The notes beneath the pieces are model-generated. The model was not told the DNA's origin, did not search any database, and was given only the letters and a program-made list of their open reading frames with translations. From Escherichia coli (GTDB taxonomy: Bacteria > Pseudomonadota > Gammaproteobacteria > Enterobacterales > Enterobacteriaceae), in NCBI RefSeq assembly GCF_003334255.1, contig NZ_QOWU01000019.1: a DNA stretch of 64,000 nt, one strand, 5' to 3'. Both the position numbers and the translations under genes were made by a program. Of the stretch, positions 33,789 to 48,131 are shown in pieces (positions within the stretch are counted from its first letter, which is position 1; every line of letters begins with the position of its first letter).

Positions 33789-39340
<5,552 letters not shown>

Positions 39341-39342
39341 CA

Positions 39343-39684
39343 ATGCGAATATTTGTCTACGGCAGTTTACGCCACAAACAAGGCAACAGTCACTGGATGA
39401 CCAATGCCCAGTTACTGGGCGATTTCAGTATCGATAACTACCAGTTGTATAGCCTGGGCCACTATCCAGGCGCAGTTCCGGGGAACGGAACAGTACACGG
39501 TGAAGTTTATCGTATTGACAACGCCACGCTGGCCGAACTTGATGCCTTGCGCACCAGGGGCGGTGAATACGCGCGCCAGTTGATTCAGACGCCGTACGGG
39601 AGTGCATGGATGTACGTTTATCAACGACCCGTCGATGGATTAAAGCTAATTGAAAGCGGCGACTGGTTAGACAGGGATAAGTAA
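39343..39684 (+). CDS. ytfP: Gamma-glutamylcyclotransferase-family protein YtfP
   Basis: 113 aa; MRIFVYGSLRHKQGNSHWM. Confidence 0.8.
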   Translation: MRIFVYGSLRHKQGNSHWMTNAQLLGDFSIDNYQLYSLGHYPGAVPGNGTVHGEVYRIDNATLAELDALRTRGGEYARQLIQTPYGSAWMYVYQRPVDGLKLIESGDWLDRDK

Positions 39685-39841
39685 TAATAAAAGCACGCCA
39701 CCTTCGGGTGGCGCGAAAACTGATGTAATGCAATGAAAAATAAAGGATTATTTTTCGAGTTGTCCACATATTGCCATGGCGTTCTAAATTTTTTTGGTGA
39801 GACTATCTCTGCTTGTTGTTTTCACCGCCAGGTTGTTAAAC

Positions 39842-39966: not shown

Positions 39967-40107
39967 TTACTGTTTACACTGCAAGAACGCCGCAAATTCT
40001 GACCACATGATGTTAAGTCTGAACTCACACGGCGAACGGTGTATCATCCAGATGGTCAACAACATGGTTAAGCATAAAATGCTCACGATGATCGTTTTTT
40101 GCGGCAT
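39967..40107 (-). CDS. Candidate Hok/Gef-family type I toxin (46 aa, single TM helix)
   Basis: AAGGAG Shine-Dalgarno 9 nt upstream of ATG; MPQKTIIVSILCLTMLLTIWMIHRSPCEFRLNIMWSEFAAFLQCKQ; resembles recalled Hok motifs (CLT..LL, R-S-x-C-E-F-R, E-F-A-A-F); below the track's 60 aa cutoff. Confidence 0.45.
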   Translation of the reverse strand: MPQKTIIVSILCLTMLLTIWMIHRSPCEFRLNIMWSEFAAFLQCKQ

Positions 40108-40169: not shown

Positions 40170-40210
40170 GGGCCTCGGGTTAAACAATATGTTTGACTCG
40201 GGGCCTTTTC
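40170..40210 (+). ncRNA. Candidate antisense (Sok-like) RNA 3' end: plus-strand intrinsic terminator within the 5' leader of the Hok-like gene
   Basis: Imperfect hairpin gggcctcggg...ctcggggcc followed by tttt on the plus strand only; no plus-strand CDS ends here. Confidence 0.3.
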
Positions 40211-40241
40211 ACATCCGGCCTTCAGGTAATCCTTCCAGCCG

Positions 40242-40544
40242 TCAGCCGAAAGGCACCCGCGCGTAATGTACAGTTTTTGACTGGGAGGCGCAATCGCCCA
40301 GGGGTAGGCTGAGTTGATCCCTTCCCCGGTGGCATGATTTGAAAGCGTCTGCGGGGACGACTCCCCGTTCTTCGGTGGGTTGCGGACGGCATACGGTTCT
40401 CACGACAAACTCGTGCGTCACAAAGGTGGCGCTGCATTCAATGTTGTTGCACTGGTAATATTTCTCCCTGATTGTTCCTGTATCGTTGGCGTCGCGGCTT
40501 GTTCTGGTGCGGGTACTTGCTCCGCAGTATGGGCAAGGATGCAT
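40242..40544 (-). CDS. ogr: Late-gene transcriptional activator, Ogr/Delta zinc-finger family
   Basis: MHPCPYCGASTRTRTSR...YYQCNNIECSATF: Cys4 zinc-finger pattern of P2 Ogr. Confidence 0.75.
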   Translation of the reverse strand: MHPCPYCGASTRTRTSRDANDTGTIREKYYQCNNIECSATFVTHEFVVRTVCRPQPTEERGVVPADAFKSCHRGRDQLSLPLGDCASQSKTVHYARVPFG

Positions 40545-40585
40545 GATGGTCCCCCAGGCTGAAACGGGGTGGGCTCGCGCTCATT

Positions 40586-41731
40586 CTAGCCAGTTGTGGC
40601 GCGCTCTGCTATCCAGTCTGCGATTTTTGCTTCCAGCTCCAGTCTGGTGGTGAAGCCGCTGTCGTCGATGACGTGCTCAATGCGCGAAATAATCCAGTCC
40701 TGATTGTCAATGTCGCTCTTGAACCCGGATACCGTGCCGTGCATCTCTGGATACAGGTCGGCGCGTCCGCGCGCCAGCGTGATGCTGAATTCTGCTGCAC
40801 CCCGCTGAAGTTGCTGCCAGCGTGCGGCAGCTGCGCGACGCGCGGCTTCTTCGTTCGGGTAGGTTTTTCTCAGCACATACACATTGCCTTCTGCGCCTTC
40901 CATGTATCCACCCTCCCGTGAACTGCTTTTCTCCGGCTTCTGTGTGGTTTTCGCGTTTCGCTTTTTCACGTTCACGGCCTTCTTCTGGCCGAACTTTAAA
41001 TCCAGCCAGTAAGCTTTCACTCCGGTATAGGCTTTTCTGTCAGCAATGCGAAAGCGATGACTGTCGCCATCCGAGCGGGTCAGGGCGAATGAGGGGAGGG
41101 CGCGCCCGCTGGCTGTCACACCGCCACCCGGCAGAATGAACAGCAGGCACCCGTTTTTTACGGTGGTTATTGCACCCAGCATGTCAGCCATACGCGTGAG
41201 GAACGAGATGTCGCTTTCCTCTGTCTGGTCTGCATGGTCGATTTCGATATTCATCAGCATTTCGCTGATTTGTGCTTTCAGTCCGTAACGGTGCGCGATG
41301 GCAGATACCACACGCTCAACGGTCACGTCATGCCAGGAGACTTCGCGTTTCACGTTAAACTCTTCGCGAAAATCCGCACTGTTCGCGGATATGGTCAGCT
41401 TATCCGGCGGACCTTCGTGGCTCACTTCGTCCACCACAAACGCCCCCTTGCGAGTGAGGCTTTCACCTTTCCATCCCATCGCCAGCGATAATCGTGTTCC
41501 GCGCTCCGGAAGTACCACCCCGCCGTCGGCGTCGTCGATTTCCAGTGTCACCCTGTCAGCCTCAAAACCCCTGTTGTCTGTCATGGTCAGGCTCATGATG
41601 CGCTGCGTGATGTTCTTCAGGCTGGCATCTTTCCCTTCCAGTGTGATAGTGAAGTCTGGCACCCTAACGGTATCTTCCGCTGCATCCAGTGCGCTGTTGA
41701 TGTGATGTGTTACTGATTCAGTGATGCTCAT
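40586..41731 (-). CDS. D: Tail protein gpD
   Basis: 381 aa; P2 gpD-like length and position next to ogr. Confidence 0.8.
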   Translation of the reverse strand: MSITESVTHHINSALDAAEDTVRVPDFTITLEGKDASLKNITQRIMSLTMTDNRGFEADRVTLEIDDADGGVVLPERGTRLSLAMGWKGESLTRKGAFVVDEVSHEGPPDKLTISANSADFREEFNVKREVSWHDVTVERVVSAIAHRYGLKAQISEMLMNIEIDHADQTEESDISFLTRMADMLGAITTVKNGCLLFILPGGGVTASGRALPSFALTRSDGDSHRFRIADRKAYTGVKAYWLDLKFGQKKAVNVKKRNAKTTQKPEKSSSREGGYMEGAEGNVYVLRKTYPNEEAARRAAAARWQQLQRGAAEFSITLARGRADLYPEMHGTVSGFKSDIDNQDWIISRIEHVIDDSGFTTRLELEAKIADWIAERATTG

Positions 41732-41791
41732 GATATCCCTCCCGTGTGCGTATCATCCCACGCGTACCTTGTCGTTTCTGTCCGGCTCTGT

Positions 41792-41809
41792 TGTAAAAAA
41801 ATCCCCACA
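41792..41809. promoter_or_regulatory. Ogr-box-like dyad TGT-N12-ACA between divergent D and FI genes (candidate late promoter element)
   Basis: tgt-aaaaaaatcccc-aca; centre about 55 nt from plausible start sites on both strands. Confidence 0.45.
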
Positions 41810-41884
41810 GCCCGCATCAGGTGAGGGCTGTGCGCCAATGGTGGATTATTCAGGCGAGCATAAACACAACTGATGGTGAATCGT

Positions 41885-43078
41885 ATGGCTGAAAAACGAT
41901 TTCACGGTGTGCGCGTCACGGAGAATACCGACCTTGTGACGGCCATTAATGACGTTGATTCCAGCGTCATTGGTATTGTTGCCGTTGCAGATGATGCGGA
42001 TACCGGGCAGTTCCCCCTTAACAAGCCAGTGCTGATTACCCGTGTATCTTCTGTTCTGGGGAAGGCCGGGAAAGCGGGCACGCTTTATAAGGCCCTTAAA
42101 GCGATATCTGACCAGGTCAGTACACGGGTGATTGTCGTTCGCGTGGAGGCGGCAAAAGAGGGGGCTGAGAATAAAACACAGGATCAACTGGTCATTGGTA
42201 CCACGGAAGAAGACGGAAGCTACAGCGGTATGCAGGCGCTTCTGGTTGCCGAACAGATGGAAGGTATTGGTTACCGACCCCGCATTCTTGCCGCTCCGGG
42301 CCTTGAATCGGATGCTGTCACGGCTGCACTGGTGACTGTTGCCGGAAAAATGCGCGCATTTGCGTATTCCGGCTGCCCTGGCTGCACAAAACCGTCCGAT
42401 GCTATTGCGTTTCGTAAAAAGATTTCCGGTCGCGAAATCATGCTTCTGTGGCCTGATTTCATTGCGTTCAACCCGGTGTCCGGTAAAAACGAAACCTTCC
42501 CGGCTGCGGCGTATGCGTGCGGTCTTCGTGCCCGACTCGACCATGAACAGGGCTGGCATCGCTCCCTTTCTAACATGCCTGTGAAAAATGTTCTTGGGGT
42601 GCCAGCGTCTGTTTCCTGGTCACTTCAGGATGAAAACAGCGATGCCAACACGCTGAACAACAGCGAGGTGACCACTCTTATTCACCAGGGCGACGGCTCC
42701 TTCCGTTTCTGGGGTAACCGTACGCCGGAAACTGCGGAGTACATCTTTGAGGTGTACACACGTACGGCGCAGCAACTGGCTGACACCATTGCGGAGGCGC
42801 AACTTCAGATAGTGGATTCACCGCTTACGCCTGCCAATGCTAAGGATGCCGTGAGCGCTATCAAGGCAAAGCTGGATGCACTGGTGACAGCCGGAAAACT
42901 CATCGGGGCTGAGTGCTGGTTCGATATCATCGACAACGGCACAACCAGTCTTCGTCAGGGCATTGTGCGTATTCGCTACAAATACACGCCTGTTCCGCCG
43001 ATGGAGTGTATGGAACTCTATCAGACGTTTACCGACGAGTTCTTCAGCTCTGCTTTTGCATCTCTTGGAGGTAGCTAA
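41885..43078 (+). CDS. FI: Tail sheath protein gpFI
   Basis: Recalled P2 FI similarity (NKPVLIT, LWPDF, GWHRSLSN, FRFWGNRT). Confidence 0.9.
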   Translation: MAEKRFHGVRVTENTDLVTAINDVDSSVIGIVAVADDADTGQFPLNKPVLITRVSSVLGKAGKAGTLYKALKAISDQVSTRVIVVRVEAAKEGAENKTQDQLVIGTTEEDGSYSGMQALLVAEQMEGIGYRPRILAAPGLESDAVTAALVTVAGKMRAFAYSGCPGCTKPSDAIAFRKKISGREIMLLWPDFIAFNPVSGKNETFPAAAYACGLRARLDHEQGWHRSLSNMPVKNVLGVPASVSWSLQDENSDANTLNNSEVTTLIHQGDGSFRFWGNRTPETAEYIFEVYTRTAQQLADTIAEAQLQIVDSPLTPANAKDAVSAIKAKLDALVTAGKLIGAECWFDIIDNGTTSLRQGIVRIRYKYTPVPPMECMELYQTFTDEFFSSAFASLGGS

Positions 43079-43590
43079 TGGCCGTACCAAAAAAACTTCG
43101 TGTGTTTACCGTCTTTGTGGACGGTGACAACAAGCTGGGAAAGGTGACGTCTTTTACCCCGCCAAAACTGACCCGTAAAACAGAGTCGTATCGCGGGGCG
43201 GGGATGCCAGGCTCTGCGTCGGTGGATCTCGGTCTTGATGATGGTGCACTGGATCTCTCCTTTGCGGTTGGTGGCGTCGATCGTCACATCTTTGCCAAAT
43301 ACGCCGCCGGTATTGATGCCGTGCGTGTTCGCTTCTCGGGTGAATACTATTCCGAAGAAGGGATTGAGTACGTCGATATTGAAGCCCGTGGTCGCATTGT
43401 CGAAATCGACAAGGGCGAGGCCAAACAGGGTGAAGATACCGAACATACCTATGCGATGAAATGCACCTGGTACAAGCTCAGCGTTGATAACAGCGATGTT
43501 ATTGAAATCGACGTGCTGAACTTCATCTGGCGCATTGATGGTAAGGATGTTCTTCCTGACCGCACCCGCTCCATGCTGGGGCTTGGCTGA
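43078..43590 (+). CDS. FII: Tail tube protein gpFII
   Basis: 170 aa; MAVPKKLRVFTVFVDGDNKLGKVTSFTPPKL; ATGA overlap with FI. Confidence 0.9.
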   Translation: MAVPKKLRVFTVFVDGDNKLGKVTSFTPPKLTRKTESYRGAGMPGSASVDLGLDDGALDLSFAVGGVDRHIFAKYAAGIDAVRVRFSGEYYSEEGIEYVDIEARGRIVEIDKGEAKQGEDTEHTYAMKCTWYKLSVDNSDVIEIDVLNFIWRIDGKDVLPDRTRSMLGLG

Positions 43591-43641
43591 TAGTTAAATC
43601 TGATAACAGGGGCGGCGTCCTGTTGCCCCGGGAGAAAAATA

Positions 43642-44022
43642 ATGGATCAGACTGAAGAAAATATCGTGACGAATGACACAGATGCTGTGACGAATGGCGA
43701 CACGGAAAACGCAGAGGCGATCGCAAATGACACGGTTAATCTCAGGGTTCCTGTTGTCTGCGGTAATAAGACGGTTTCCAGCGTGAAGATTGGGGCGCTT
43801 GCGCGTCAGGTGGGCTCGCTTCGAGGGATCCGCATGACGGACCTGTTCAACACCGATGTTGATGCTGCCGCCATTTTTCTGGAACGCGTAACTGAACCTC
43901 ACCTCAGCCGCGCGGCACTTATGTCAATGTGCCCGGAAGACTTCTTTAAACTGTACGAGGTGGCAGTCGGTTTTTTGCTTCCCTCGTCAGCGAAGAAGGC
44001 GCAGGAGGCGGGCGGCGCGTAA
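43642..44022 (+). CDS. E: Tail assembly chaperone gpE (E' extension by -1 frameshift to about 44177)
   Basis: 126 aa; P2 gpE-like C-terminal half; slippery site near the 3' end. Confidence 0.8.
   Translation: MDQTEENIVTNDTDAVTNGDTENAEAIANDTVNLRVPVVCGNKTVSSVKIGALARQVGSLRGIRMTDLFNTDVDAAAIFLERVTEPHLSRAALMSMCPEDFFKLYEVAVGFLLPSSAKKAQEAGGA
43971..43977 (+). other. Programmed -1 ribosomal frameshift slippery heptamer T_TTT_TTG (gpE to gpE+E')
   Basis: In E frame GGT TTT TTG; the -1 frame stays open for about 65 codons to a TAA at 44175-44177 overlapping the T start. Confidence 0.65.
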
Positions 44023-44169
44023 CGCTTCTTGCTTTTGATTACGTTGAAGATATTGTCGCTGATATAGCCGTTGTATTTCACTGGTCGCCCTCTGAAATCT
44101 TTGTGATGACTCCCGGTGAACTGGTTGCCTGGCGAGAACGGGCGGCCGTCAGAACCGGGAATCATAACG

Positions 44170-47001
44170 ATGAGTAATAATCTCCAGATACGTGTAGCCC
44201 TTACTGCGGTCGACCGTCTCACTCAACCCGTCAGGCGCGCCCGGGAAATGACCGGCGCGCTTTCTGAATCTCTTTCCTCCACGCAGAACGCTCTTAAGTC
44301 ACTCCAGCGAAGCAGTGATGCGTTTTCCCGTGCCCGCCAGCAGGTGACCTCGACTGAAAACAGCCTGAACGAGGCGCGTGCGCGACTTCAGCGCCTCCAG
44401 GAGGCCCAGCGTACTGGCACGACACTAACGGAAAAACAGCAGGAAGCTATCCGCTCGCTGACTGCGAAGATTGATCGCCTTAATACGGTTTATTCCCTCC
44501 ACAAATCCCGACTTAGCGAAGCCGGTCGCGAACTGGAAGCCCACGGCATACGGGCTGACGGAAGTAACCGCGCTGTGGAGGAAGCAATCAGGCGAACGCA
44601 GGAATACAACGATCAGCTTGAGCGCCAGCAGGCTCAGCTTGCACGCGTCACGCAGGCGCAGCAACGCTATGACCGTGTTAAGGATATTGCCGGTAAGCTC
44701 AGTCAGCGCGGTGCTGTTGCCATGGCGGCTGGCAGTGCCGGTCTGTATGCTGCCGGTCGCGCGGTTGCACCAGTTGTTGAAGAGCAACGGCAGGGGGCGC
44801 TCATTGCGGCACAGAGTGGCGGCAGCGCAGAAGACGGCCAGCGCTACAGCCGTATGATTCAGAGCATCCGTGCGTCAGGTGCGGCCACGGATATCGCGAT
44901 GATTTCGGAAGCAGCAGCTGCGGCGCAAAGCACGCTTGGCGCACTGGGTACCGTAGGGACTGAAGAACTGGAAAGGGTGACACGGCAGGCAATCGATCTT
45001 GCTCAGGTCACCGGCGGTAATGTGGCTGAACAGGTTCAGGCTGCTGGCATTATGCTGAAAAACGGGCTTGCCGCAAATGCAGGTGAGGCCGTCGACCTGA
45101 TGGCGGCAGGGATGCAGAAAATGTCTGCCGAAATGCGCGGCGAACTTCCTGAAATTCTGCATGAGTATTCCACGCATTTCCGCAATATGGGGCTATCCGG
45201 CTCTGAAACCATGACGCTGCTTGTCAGCATGGCGCAGCAGGGGAAATTCGCCCTGGATAAAACCGGCGATGCTGTCAAAGAATTCAGTATTCGCGGCTCG
45301 GATATGTCCAAATCCAGCGTTGAAGCCTATGAGCTGATTGGCCTTAACGCTGAAAGAATGTCGTCAGCGATCGCCAGTGGCGGCGCGGCCGCGCGTGAAG
45401 CGATGCGTCGCACCGCGTCAGGTCTGTTACAGATTCAGGATCCTGCAGAAAGGGCCAATGCGGCGATAGCGCTGTTCGGCACACCCATTGAAGATCTGGC
45501 TGTTGACCAGATCCCGGATTTTCTCCGGTCGCTTGCAACGGTATCTGACCGTATGGGGCTGGTTCAGGGAACCGCCCGGCGAATGGGGGATGTTCTGCGT
45601 GACAACCTCGGCGGCGACACCGATCGTCTGTCCGGCATTTTCTCCGGTATTCGCAGTGATGTTGTGTCGCTGGTTACTGATGATATCCGCGAGCTTGTAC
45701 AGGCTGTTGCTTCTGTGGGTGAACGCTTCAGGTCGTGGGTTCAGGAAAACCCGCAGCTTGTACGCACGCTGACTCTTACCGTGGGTGGCGTGCTTGCGGC
45801 CACAACGGCCATTGGTGCGTTGTCTGTCGGAGGTGGGTTACTGACGGGGATTTTTGCAAAACTTCAGCTTGGCTCTGCGCTTCTTGGTGGCGGGCTATCC
45901 TCGCTTACAAACGGTGTTGGTGGTCTTGCTCTTCGCCTGTCCGGCCTTCCGGCACTGTGGGGGATGGTCTCCGGTGCGGTTTCTGTGCTGGGCGGGGTGC
46001 TTTCCGGTCTTCTCAGTCCTGTTGGTCTCGTGATTGCTGCTCTTGCCGGTGGGGCGCTGCTCATATGGCGTCACTGGGAACAGGTTAAGGCGTTCATGCT
46101 CGGCACATTCCGGTCGCTGTGGGCTGGCCTTGCGCCTGTTCGTGAAAGTATTGCTCAGTTTGCGCCGTTGTTTGATCTGGTGTCGGGTGCGGTGTCCACG
46201 GTGTTTGACTGGTTTACCCGGTTACTCACGCCTGTTCAGGCCAGCAACGAATCTCTTGAACGGTGTACGTCTGCGGGAGAAAGCTTCGGTCGTGTACTTA
46301 GTGGGGCGATATCGCTTGCGCTTACGCCGCTGAAGGCGCTGATGGATGGACTTGCCTGGGTACTGGAAAAGCTTGGCGTGCTGCCTGATGAAGCTGAAAG
46401 GGCGCGCCGGAAACTGGAGGATGCACAGCGGGCTTCGCTTCTTCAGGGCAAGCTCTCCCTGCTTCAGGGGGATGTTAATGCCATTATCTCGCCCGCTAAG
46501 CCAGTTGATGGCAATGATAAAGGTAATAATGGTGGCAAGCCTTCTGTCATAAACGACGGCACCAGTGGCGTTCTTCGCAGGCTCAAAGGTATCGAGGGTA
46601 ATACGTCGGGTATGCTTCAGGAAGCCCGCAAGCGTATCGGTCCTGGCGATATCGTGTTTAAAAATCTCCCCCGTGCGCTGGCTGTTCGCGGGCAGTGGAA
46701 TGAACCGACTGTTGCACCCGGGCTTCCGCTTATGCCAGCGTTTTCGCCTGTGTCTCCGGCGGTTTCCCCGGATTCTTCCCGTCCTGTGGAGGTTAAGCGG
46801 TGGGATCCGGTGTCCCCGACACCCCGGGAGCCTTCGCGCTCTCCTGAACCGCCGCCTGTGTACGGTGGTGATATTCATGTTCACCTTCACAACGTGGTTA
46901 CGCAGAACCCTCGCGACCTTGCCAGAATGGTGGGGGAGGCGGTACGGGAAGAAATTCGCAGACAATCCGGCGGTATGAACAGTTTCCGCGATCGTGATTA
47001 G
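44170..47001 (+). CDS. T: Tail tape measure protein gpT
   Basis: Start MSNNLQIRVALT; coiled-coil N-terminal region, Gly/Ala-rich hydrophobic middle, Pro-rich C-terminus. Confidence 0.85.
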   Translation: MSNNLQIRVALTAVDRLTQPVRRAREMTGALSESLSSTQNALKSLQRSSDAFSRARQQVTSTENSLNEARARLQRLQEAQRTGTTLTEKQQEAIRSLTAKIDRLNTVYSLHKSRLSEAGRELEAHGIRADGSNRAVEEAIRRTQEYNDQLERQQAQLARVTQAQQRYDRVKDIAGKLSQRGAVAMAAGSAGLYAAGRAVAPVVEEQRQGALIAAQSGGSAEDGQRYSRMIQSIRASGAATDIAMISEAAAAAQSTLGALGTVGTEELERVTRQAIDLAQVTGGNVAEQVQAAGIMLKNGLAANAGEAVDLMAAGMQKMSAEMRGELPEILHEYSTHFRNMGLSGSETMTLLVSMAQQGKFALDKTGDAVKEFSIRGSDMSKSSVEAYELIGLNAERMSSAIASGGAAAREAMRRTASGLLQIQDPAERANAAIALFGTPIEDLAVDQIPDFLRSLATVSDRMGLVQGTARRMGDVLRDNLGGDTDRLSGIFSGIRSDVVSLVTDDIRELVQAVASVGERFRSWVQENPQLVRTLTLTVGGVLAATTAIGALSVGGGLLTGIFAKLQLGSALLGGGLSSLTNGVGGLALRLSGLPALWGMVSGAVSVLGGVLSGLLSPVGLVIAALAGGALLIWRHWEQVKAFMLGTFRSLWAGLAPVRESIAQFAPLFDLVSGAVSTVFDWFTRLLTPVQASNESLERCTSAGESFGRVLSGAISLALTPLKALMDGLAWVLEKLGVLPDEAERARRKLEDAQRASLLQGKLSLLQGDVNAIISPAKPVDGNDKGNNGGKPSVINDGTSGVLRRLKGIEGNTSGMLQEARKRIGPGDIVFKNLPRALAVRGQWNEPTVAPGLPLMPAFSPVSPAVSPDSSRPVEVKRWDPVSPTPREPSRSPEPPPVYGGDIHVHLHNVVTQNPRDLARMVGEAVREEIRRQSGGMNSFRDRD

Positions 47002-47003
47002 GA

Positions 47004-47477
47004 GTGATGGTTATGATGATGATTTACGGCATGTTTGTTTTTCAGTTAAGCACACTGCCACACCAACAAATACAACAGTCCCGTAACTGGAGGCATGTAA
47101 AGAACGAGCGAATCAACCGCTCAGCCAGCTGGCAGTATATCGGCGCGGGTGACGATACCATCACGCTTTCGGGTTTGCTCTACCCGGAAATTACGGGCGG
47201 TGAAGTCTCCCTGACCGCACTGACCAGCCAGGCTTACGTCGGGCGACCATGGCCGCTGATTGATGGGGTAGGGCAGATTTACGGGATGTATGTCATTACC
47301 GGGCTTAACACCACCCGCTCTGAACTTGATCGCTATGGTCGGGCAAGAAAGATTGAGTTTACTGTCACTTTTGAGCGTGTGGATGAAGATCTGCGTGAAC
47401 GTCTTCAGTCCTCGTCGCTTGGTGATCTTGCGAATAACGTTAAAGGTGCCCTGAATAATCTGTCCATTCCGGTTTAA
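47004..47477 (+). CDS. U: Tail protein gpU
   Basis: 157 aa; follows T as in the P2 FETUD operon. Confidence 0.8.
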   Translation: MMVMMMIYGMFVFQLSTLPHQQIQQSRNWRHVKNERINRSASWQYIGAGDDTITLSGLLYPEITGGEVSLTALTSQAYVGRPWPLIDGVGQIYGMYVITGLNTTRSELDRYGRARKIEFTVTFERVDEDLRERLQSSSLGDLANNVKGALNNLSIPV

Positions 47478-47483
47478 ATAATA

Positions 47484-47508
47484 ACGCCCTGGTGTCAGGG
47501 CGTTTTTG
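47484..47508 (+). terminator. Rho-independent terminator after U (convergent with G)
   Basis: acgccctg-gtgt-cagggcgt followed by ttttt. Confidence 0.65.
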
Positions 47509-47512
47509 CTGT

Positions 47513-48121
47513 TCATCTTTCGGTGGCGGGTTCTTCCTGTGTGGGCCAGCCCACAACGTAACGCTGAATGGCCTCCGCATCCTGAAGTTCTGCAATCTCT
47601 TTTTTCATGTTGCGCTGGCGCACATGAATTTCCATTCCCTTCGCGAACATTGCCTGTTGCGCGGCTTCACTCAGCGCAATCAGTTCTTCCGCAGTCATGG
47701 GGACGTCGTTGTTGTCTGCGTCTGTCCAGAAAAACTTCTCCGGGAGATTGCCTTCTTTTGCTGCGATAACTGATGGGCCAAGGCGATCCTGTGTTTCCTT
47801 TCCATAATCCCAGTTACGGCCATTAAAGCTGAAAATATAACTGGCTGATTCCATTCTGTTCCGCCAGGCGTTGATCCCGGCGGTTTTGAGTTCTCTGGCT
47901 TTTTCCGGGCTGATGGATGGCTGTACATATTCTGCAATTTCACCGGCCTCTCCTCTCAGACAAGCGGCATAAATATCCCGCCCGTATGCTTCGGTATCGC
48001 TGGCTGTTGCAGTGAAAGGAACCGCCTGCTCAATGTGCTCAAACTTCACCATGCAATTGACAGCAGTGTGCTCTTTATCTGCCCATTGCGGATTGCTTAT
48101 TTTTTCCACATTCATGTTCAT
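47513..48121 (-). CDS. G: Tail fiber assembly protein gpG-like
   Basis: Likely start MNVEKISNPQW just after the H stop; position equivalent to P2 G; sequence match weaker than for other genes. Confidence 0.6.
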   Translation of the reverse strand: MNMNVEKISNPQWADKEHTAVNCMVKFEHIEQAVPFTATASDTEAYGRDIYAACLRGEAGEIAEYVQPSISPEKARELKTAGINAWRNRMESASYIFSFNGRNWDYGKETQDRLGPSVIAAKEGNLPEKFFWTDADNNDVPMTAEELIALSEAAQQAMFAKGMEIHVRQRNMKKEIAELQDAEAIQRYVVGWPTQEEPATER

Positions 48122-48131
48122 CTCCTGTCTG

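Follow-up and report, generated by a model that had tools for sequence, protein, structure and literature searches.

The tail-shaft genes of phage P2 form the F operon, which starts at the promoter pF and runs through FI, FII, E, E', T, U and D, followed by ogr. In the P2 reference record all of these genes share the strand of the O-to-G genes, and Z/fun is located between G and pF. Here we describe the corresponding region of a P2-like prophage in a stretch of 64,000 nt of Escherichia coli DNA, called the window throughout the paper. Compared with P2, the block from FI to U is inverted in this prophage, and the inversion does not extend to D and ogr.

Two further described systems are of importance for the comparison. 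The P2 record carries one activator site (3057-3087) for the divergent late promoters pP (start 3016) and pO (start 3127), located 55-56 bp from each start, and the same sharing of one activator site by divergent promoters was described for Smp131 (PMC3931495). Among the relatives discussed below, P88 was reported to be inducible by chemicals and to lyse a range of E. coli strains, PhiSM to be released spontaneously and to form plaques, and SEN4 to be plaque-forming as well (PMC6456863, PMC5261728). With a probability of roughly 85%, we take the locus in the window for a tail-shaft operon of the P88/SEN4 lineage of the P2 family, which was flipped once together with its promoter, and in which a shared Ogr dyad would drive both pF and a promoter of D and ogr.

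Orientation of the Tail-Shaft Operon

All positions given are those of the window, and gene starts follow the annotation by the Prokaryotic Genome Annotation Pipeline (PGAP) of a 99.7% identical copy, L003. The following features were found in the tail region.

39967..40107, minus strand: hok/gef-like toxin gene at the prophage end (NCBIfam HokA/Hok family, E 2.9e-9, under the curated cut-off)
40242..40544, minus strand: ogr/Delta-like zinc-finger late activator of 100 amino acids (aa), directly downstream of D (PHROG 603)
40586..41731, minus strand: D, gpD tail/baseplate hub ("late control D"; PHROG 52, E 1.7e-153)
41732..41884, no strand: D/FI spacer of 153 bp, proposed bidirectional late promoter region
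41885..43078, plus strand: FI, tail sheath (PHROG 23, E 3.7e-113)
43078..43590, plus strand: FII, tail tube (NCBIfam TIGR01611 tail_tube, 113 bits at a cut-off of 102.75)
43642..44022, plus strand: E, tail assembly chaperone (PHROG 103)
43642..44177, plus strand: E+E', chaperone with -1 frame (putative slip site T TTT TTG at 43971-43977, -1 frame open to 44177)
44170..47001, plus strand: T, tape measure protein (PHROG 28, E 2e-120; TIGR01760 domain)
47013..47477, plus strand: gpU, tail protein (PHROG 76, E 4.4e-70; 49% identical to P2 U)
47483..47504, no strand: predicted bidirectional intrinsic terminator between the convergent U and G-position genes
47513..48115, minus strand: tail fibre assembly protein in the G position, DUF4376 (PHROG 1141, E 6e-79; PGAP annotation of L003)

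Homologues of all members of the module (FI, FII, E, T, U, D and Ogr) were identified using PHROG, NCBIfam, Pfam and BLASTP. Comparing the proteins with those of P2 by BLASTP, D was found 48% identical to gpD over its full length (365 aa aligned, E 4e-120). The ogr product matched Pfam Ogr_Delta (PF04606, E 1.6e-15), and 54 aa of it aligned with P2 Ogr at 46% identity. The remaining module proteins reached 25-49% identity in tblastn against P2. For FI the identity was 73% to the P88 sheath and 46% to P2 FI. The slippery heptamer T TTT TTG reads in the frame of E, as expected for a predicted programmed -1 frameshift.

The canonical co-directional order of P2 was not found. FI to U are encoded on the plus strand, whereas D, ogr and the genes from G to R are encoded on the minus strand. 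The G-position gene is the last of the minus-strand run from R to G; beyond the G position, H, I, J, W, V, S, R, the lysis genes, X, L, M, N and O occupy the minus strand, and P and Q follow beyond O on the plus strand. The window and the P2 F operon have in common the same genes, the same E/E' slip site T TTT TTG and an activator of the Ogr type. In P2, however, the operon is co-directional with V-G and runs into D and ogr, while the operon of the window ends at U and points in the opposite direction. A first-pass annotation of the window, made from the sequence, had already placed FI to U opposite to D/ogr and to the G-to-O genes, and had given the P2 order FI-FII-E-T-U-D-ogr as one co-directional unit downstream of G. 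The gene strands and the P2 reference record agree with both statements. Its FI start at 41873 was replaced by 41885, as given by PGAP for L003 (with T at 44170 and U at 47013).

As a separate observation, the cysteines of the Ogr homologue are spaced CX2CX24CX4C and followed by a C-terminal tail of ~45 aa, while the P2 protein has 72 aa in total. The cysteine spacing of P2 Ogr is CX2CX22CX4C (PMC3931495).

Distribution of the Inverted Layout

The 8.1-kb stretch 40200-48300 was found as one collinear piece, including both junctions, in 16 complete E. coli genomes with 98.7-99.7% identity. Two further complete E. coli genomes carry the 8.1-kb block at 88%, and independent IMG/VR contigs carry it as well. 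When the tail block was searched by megablast in 50,697 phage records, a match was obtained only at the end encoding tail fibre assembly. As the DNA search was uninformative for the tail block, relatives were recovered at the protein level. The sheath was 54-73% identical to that of named phages, and every phage record opened displayed the same arrangement. D on the minus strand, FI to U on the plus strand and G on the minus strand, with ogr downstream of D, were observed in Escherichia phage P88 and Citrobacter phage PhiSM (Xuanwuvirus), Enterobacter phage phiT5282H (Novemvirus) and Klebsiella phage ST16-OXA48phi5.4 (Reipivirus). The same inverted layout is present in Klebsiella phage 3LV2017 (Reginaelenavirus), Salmonella phage SEN4 (Senquatrovirus) and the Serratia phage KSP20. 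It is consequently found in the reference genomes of five genera of Peduoviridae recognized by the International Committee on Taxonomy of Viruses (ICTV), plus KSP20, for which the GenBank notes already mark the gpD-like and gpFI-like genes on opposite strands.

The orientation might, in principle, stem from an assembly error or a private rearrangement of one genome. We found no evidence in support of such an error, and both junctions are collinear in the 16 independently assembled complete genomes, in the IMG/VR contigs and in seven separately sequenced phages, which leaves this explanation a negligible probability. P88, PhiSM and SEN4 are reported to be viable with the inverted layout, therefore the layout works. 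The first-pass annotation had considered the arrangement functional and not misassembled, and the 16 collinear genomes and the viable phages bear this out. The novelty it had implied did not hold, since reference P2-like phages share the layout. The arrangement is an inherited lineage trait, already known and annotated in several reference genomes. A literature search covering the papers on P88, SEN4, PhiSM and PP4/KSP20 and a 2026 paper on P2-like diversity revealed no mention of the inversion or of a D/FI promoter. Given that no comment was found in the literature searched, a comparative note on the inversion is new as text, not as data.

Closest in gene order were P88 and PhiSM, with hok, ogr and D on the minus strand, FI, FII, E, E', T and U on the plus strand, and the fibre/baseplate genes again on the minus strand. 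Both also carry the same dyad in the D/FI spacer as the window, and their FI and D proteins are each 73% identical to those of the window. They differ from it by a DNA invertase and an invertible segment with alternative fibre genes between U and G, where the window has only a 35-bp terminator spacer, and their T and E proteins are just 31-39% identical. SEN4, phiT5282H, ST16-OXA48phi5.4, 3LV2017 and KSP20 share with the window the inverted tail-shaft operon and a spacer of 139-181 bp with the dyad and symmetric -10 elements. In contrast to the window, these five phages have other hosts, FI proteins of 54-67% identity and differing cargo at the G/U junction and beyond ogr, e.g., a DUF262 gene pair and cpdA.

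ICTV practice sets the genus at ~70% nucleotide similarity over the genome. Using megablast of 24 kb of the prophage against P88, PhiSM and P884B11, ~12% aligned, at ~72%. The prophage is not of the same species as P88 and probably not a member of the genus Xuanwuvirus, with megablast coverage used as proxy. Two of the records showed annotation problems. In the P88 record (NC_026014; L001, 1091-1339) the ogr homologue was left unannotated, and in the PhiSM record (OR565851; L023, 2294-4745) product names are off by one gene, with D called ogr and the sheath called D.

Origin and Direction of the Inversion

A local tblastn survey comprised 26 fetched loci. The inverted layout was present in 19 of 19 loci with an FI at least 54% identical to that of the window. 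The canonical layout was observed for P2, Aeromonas phage LPM4, Mannheimia phage 587AP1 and three IMG/VR contigs (L015-17). The identity of the window FI was 54-73% to members of the lineage and at most 48% to canonical phages. Neighbour-joining trees were calculated for FI, located inside the flipped block, and for D, located outside of it. In both trees all 19 inverted loci formed one clade with the window inside and the canonical phages outside, and SEN4 was the deepest branch. The simplest reading is that the segment from pF to U was inverted once, long ago, and that the genes inside and outside the block co-evolved from then on. The prophage is assigned to the P88/SEN4-type lineage of Peduoviridae by its layout, by the phylogeny of its proteins and by the architecture of its spacer. 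Together these comparisons show how the genes are laid out, that this layout is widely shared and that it has a single origin.

An unrooted comparison of the two layouts alone gives no direction of change, so that the P88-type order might be the ancestral one, with the P2 order derived from it by a reverse inversion. Outside the clade, however, the co-directional order with U next to D was present in every sampled lineage, i.e., P2, LPM4, 587AP1 and L015-17, and in Burkholderia phage KS5, where D adjoins U on one strand (PMC3091744). The inverted loci, on the other hand, form a single nested clade. We consider the reverse direction quite improbable.

Comparison of the Block Junctions

P88 and PhiSM encode a DNA invertase directly beside U. 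A possible explanation for the orientation is that the FI-U block is a programmed invertible segment, flipped by a site-specific invertase like the tail-fibre segments of P88, Mu and P1. An imperfect inverted repeat near both junctions of the window (41844-41865 and 47439-47460) would fit to this idea. It matches at 17 of 22 positions with an exact 11-mer (GATTATTCAGG/CCTGAATAATC), which was equalled by 1 of 200 shuffles. In the stretch from ogr to the replication genes of the L003 copy (99.8% identical), with the far end outside the coverage, no invertase was annotated, and every copy found had the same orientation. Moreover, the junction repeat is absent from relatives with FI and D 89-96% identical and from all other members of the lineage, and flipping would part FI from its conserved promoter geometry. 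A site-specific invertible segment of the Cin/Gin/Hin type should have a recombinase gene, crossover sites inverted at its two ends and both orientations in populations, and this set of features was not found in the stretch and the copies compared. With no invertase annotated in that stretch of L003 and no copy found in opposite orientation, a programmed invertible segment is therefore very unlikely.

The inverted repeat was also considered as a scar of the old inversion. This candidate was dropped, because a repeat missing even from relatives of 89-96% identity has to be treated as chance or as lineage-private. The search for short inverted repeats at the two junctions, proposed in the first-pass annotation, yielded this lineage-private repeat as its best result. 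In the inverted-repeat comparison no inversion scar was left in the two junction neighbourhoods.

Predicted Terminator and Cargo Site at the U/G Junction

The U/G junction comprises 47478-47512 and includes the hairpin 47483-47504 with a stem of 9 bp and a loop of 4 nt. Calculated free energies were -16.3 and -16.1 kcal/mol on the two strands (z -3.9 and -5.4), and 0 of 200 shuffles folded as well, in agreement with the terminator postulated for this junction in the first-pass annotation. The T-run is good on the plus strand, while the tail on the minus strand (ATTATTT) is weaker. With its GC-rich hairpin and U-run, the element is a predicted intrinsic terminator.

The junction is empty in the window. 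In relatives it contains cargo. P88 (L001, 8251-10399) and PhiSM (L023, 9175-11086) have a DNA invertase there together with a cassette of alternative tail-fibre genes, and ST16-OXA48phi5.4 (L020, 7809-9712) carries a DUF262 gene pair at this site. In effect, the Z/fun cargo hotspot of P2 moved with G to the G/U junction and was not lost. The Z/fun site had first been described as absent from the window. This is right insofar as the adjacency of G and FI is gone and the junction is empty here, but not for the relatives, which keep cargo beside G at the G/U junction.

Architecture of the D/FI Spacer

The spacers of 13 distinct relatives were anchored on the centre of the dyad and compared without gaps. 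The following elements were identified in the spacer of the window.

41789..41809, no strand: Ogr-box-type dyad TGTTGT-N12-ACA, exact match, centre at 41800.5 (core TGT-N12-ACA at 41792-41809)
41844..41849, plus strand: predicted -10 hexamer of pF, GATTAT, with A..AT kept 46 bp from the dyad centre (47 in L021 and L024)
41752..41760, minus strand: predicted extended -10 element of a divergent D-ogr promoter, TGgGATGAT, 46 bp from the dyad centre

A TGT-N12-ACA dyad in a D/FI gap of 140 bp had been noted before; the dyad is present at 41792-41809 and near-central, with its centre 7.5 bp off the middle of the spacer, but the gap comprises 153 bp. The motif TGTTGT-N12-A(C/G)A was present in all 13 distinct spacers with its centre 81.5-88.5 bp upstream of the FI ATG. 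In the window this distance is 84.5 bp, compared to 82.5 bp for the annotated pF activator site of P2. The bare motif TGT-N12-ACA is not enriched in the window (9 found versus 14.3 expected), hence the weight rests on the extended motif, its positions and its conservation. TGTTGT-N12-A(C/G)A was found 4 times in the window with 1.0 expected, and two of the four matches are located in the divergent late spacers D/FI and O/P (60783-60803 for the latter). The remaining two lie in coding sequence (43112-43132, minus strand, in FII; 47710-47730, plus strand, in the G-position gene) and are probably due to chance. Two features of an Ogr/Delta-type promoter were found, an encoded zinc-finger activator and a TGT-N12-ACA dyad upstream of a late operon.

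Beyond the dyad and the ribosome-binding sites, conservation was restricted to two sets of columns, A..AT towards FI and TG..A...T towards D. For the hexamer on the D side, A2 and T6 were conserved in 13 of 13 spacers and TGn in 12 of 13; a consistent -35 element was not observed on this side in the 13 spacers. Transcription is predicted to start near 41856 on the plus and near 41745 on the minus strand, ~55 bp to either side of the dyad centre, a spacing which agrees with the geometry annotated for the late promoters of P2. As for pP/pO of P2, one dyad lies midway between divergent late units with ~55 bp to each start, and the O/P spacer of the window is alike. The P2 pair was, however, mapped experimentally and serves head genes, while the D/FI pair is predicted and would serve tail genes. 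In all 13 relatives the D/FI spacer comprises 139-181 bp and is never occupied by cargo, which fits the constraint of a shared promoter region.

The spacer of the window also contains a hairpin at 41806-41832 with a free energy of -18.6 kcal/mol, behind which the minus strand has a U7 run. It was considered as a terminator and rejected, as it is not conserved in close relatives and sits between the two predicted starts. Reading the sequence upstream of R/V for a third Ogr box gave no convincing candidate, with no further search made.

Proposed Regulation of the Divergent Tail Genes

The following course of events would account for the observed layout. One old inversion, now fixed, would have flipped pF-FI-FII-E/E'-T-U, promoter included, between G and D, and D and ogr would thereby have been cut off from pF. 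With the 5.6-kb FI-U block antisense to it and a predicted terminator at the U/G junction, D is out of reach from upstream on its own strand. A second promoter, divergent from pF, would read D-ogr from the same palindromic Ogr-binding dyad. As ogr is located downstream of D, the D promoter would keep the late read-through into ogr which P2 gets from pF. At the other end, the convergent U and G-position genes would stop at the shared two-way terminator. From the sequence comparison we infer that a single Ogr site may drive pF rightward and the D-ogr promoter leftward. More specifically, the Ogr box may have been co-opted in the leftward direction after the inversion, giving rise to an Ogr-dependent D-ogr promoter and locking the spacer at ~140-180 bp, free of cargo, in at least five genera. 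This part of the proposal we regard as somewhat on the probable side.

Several observations weigh against this reading. The leftward D promoter is deduced from sequence comparison for every phage of the lineage. In 5 of the 13 spacers the promoter-proximal half-site reads AGA instead of ACA. The leader predicted for D comprises ~14 nt only, and in the window the stretch from the dyad to the pF -10 element is overlapped by the hairpin 41806-41832, which is specific to this lineage. For the single origin, the sample was small, with 25 loci and just 6 of them canonical. Finally, the D-side element is an extended -10 (TGn) and could act without an activator.

The last point leads to the main competing explanation, in which the dyad serves pF only and D-ogr has an extended -10 promoter that works without an activator, constitutively or early, outside the control of Ogr. 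Extended -10 elements can function with sigma-70 without a -35 element or an activator, and TGn was found on the D side in 12 of the 13 spacers. The P2 record further assigns to ogr a promoter of its own, independent of pF. If the dyad were irrelevant for D, however, it would remain unexplained why the D-side -10 element holds the exact distance of 46 bp to the dyad across otherwise unalignable spacers. In addition, D is a structural late gene, and the use of one site in both directions is already realized in P2 and in Smp131 (PMC3931495). Overall, we consider an Ogr-independent D-ogr promoter rather unlikely.

Prophage Ends, Neighbouring Genes, and Cargo

The prophage boundary was set to ~39838, where the similarity to the L003 copy begins. 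The neighbouring region 35561-39684 encodes proteins of 1259 aa and 113 aa, which we take from their translations to be TamB-like and YtfP-like, respectively. The same prophage (99.8% identical over 24 kb) adjoins ytfP in the window and serS in E. coli G1/2 (NZ_CP060083; L003). Comparing 39700-39838 of the window with 19560-19644 of L003, a similar stretch of ~35 nt was detected in both chromosomal flanks (AAAATAAAGGATTATTTTTCGAGTTGTCCACATA versus AAAATAAAAGGGATTTATTTTCAGGTGTCCATATAA), which suggests alternative attachment (att) sites sharing a common core.

The hok/gef-like type I toxin gene is located beyond ogr, and P88 has one at the same place; the identical gene in L003 is labelled "Hok/Gef family protein" by PGAP. 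An Rfam scan of 39-64 kb detected no family and no Sok. The segment separating R from the lysis genes encodes a cargo protein of 656 aa (53769-55739, minus strand) with DUF1737, a SASA-type carbohydrate acetylesterase domain and DUF6645. The protein may deacetylate surface sugars and thereby serve in lysogenic conversion or in the modification of a receptor. Its gene is followed by a small open reading frame with DUF1378 (53540-53704, minus strand). The tail fibre H (48132-49730, minus strand) contains a collagen-like Gly-X-Y run of ~50 residues. The stretch 47513-48300 (minus strand), comprising the fibre-assembly gene and the end of H, displays 86-89% DNA identity to genes of PhiR12, PhiR5 and P-Eib, which are unrelated phages of E. 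coli. The fibre end of the tail block is a mosaic joint, and the rest of the block has no DNA match.

Implications for the P2 Family

The layout is a clean synapomorphy, which divides the P88/SEN4 group of Peduoviridae from the P2-type phages. For annotators, a P88-type layout is no reason for a misassembly flag. One Ogr site for two divergent tail promoters is a modest and testable extension of the pP/pO precedent. If true, it would place the activator Ogr in a positive-feedback loop, and the lineage would provide a natural example of a symmetric activator site which allows an operon to be cut and flipped with its regulation kept.

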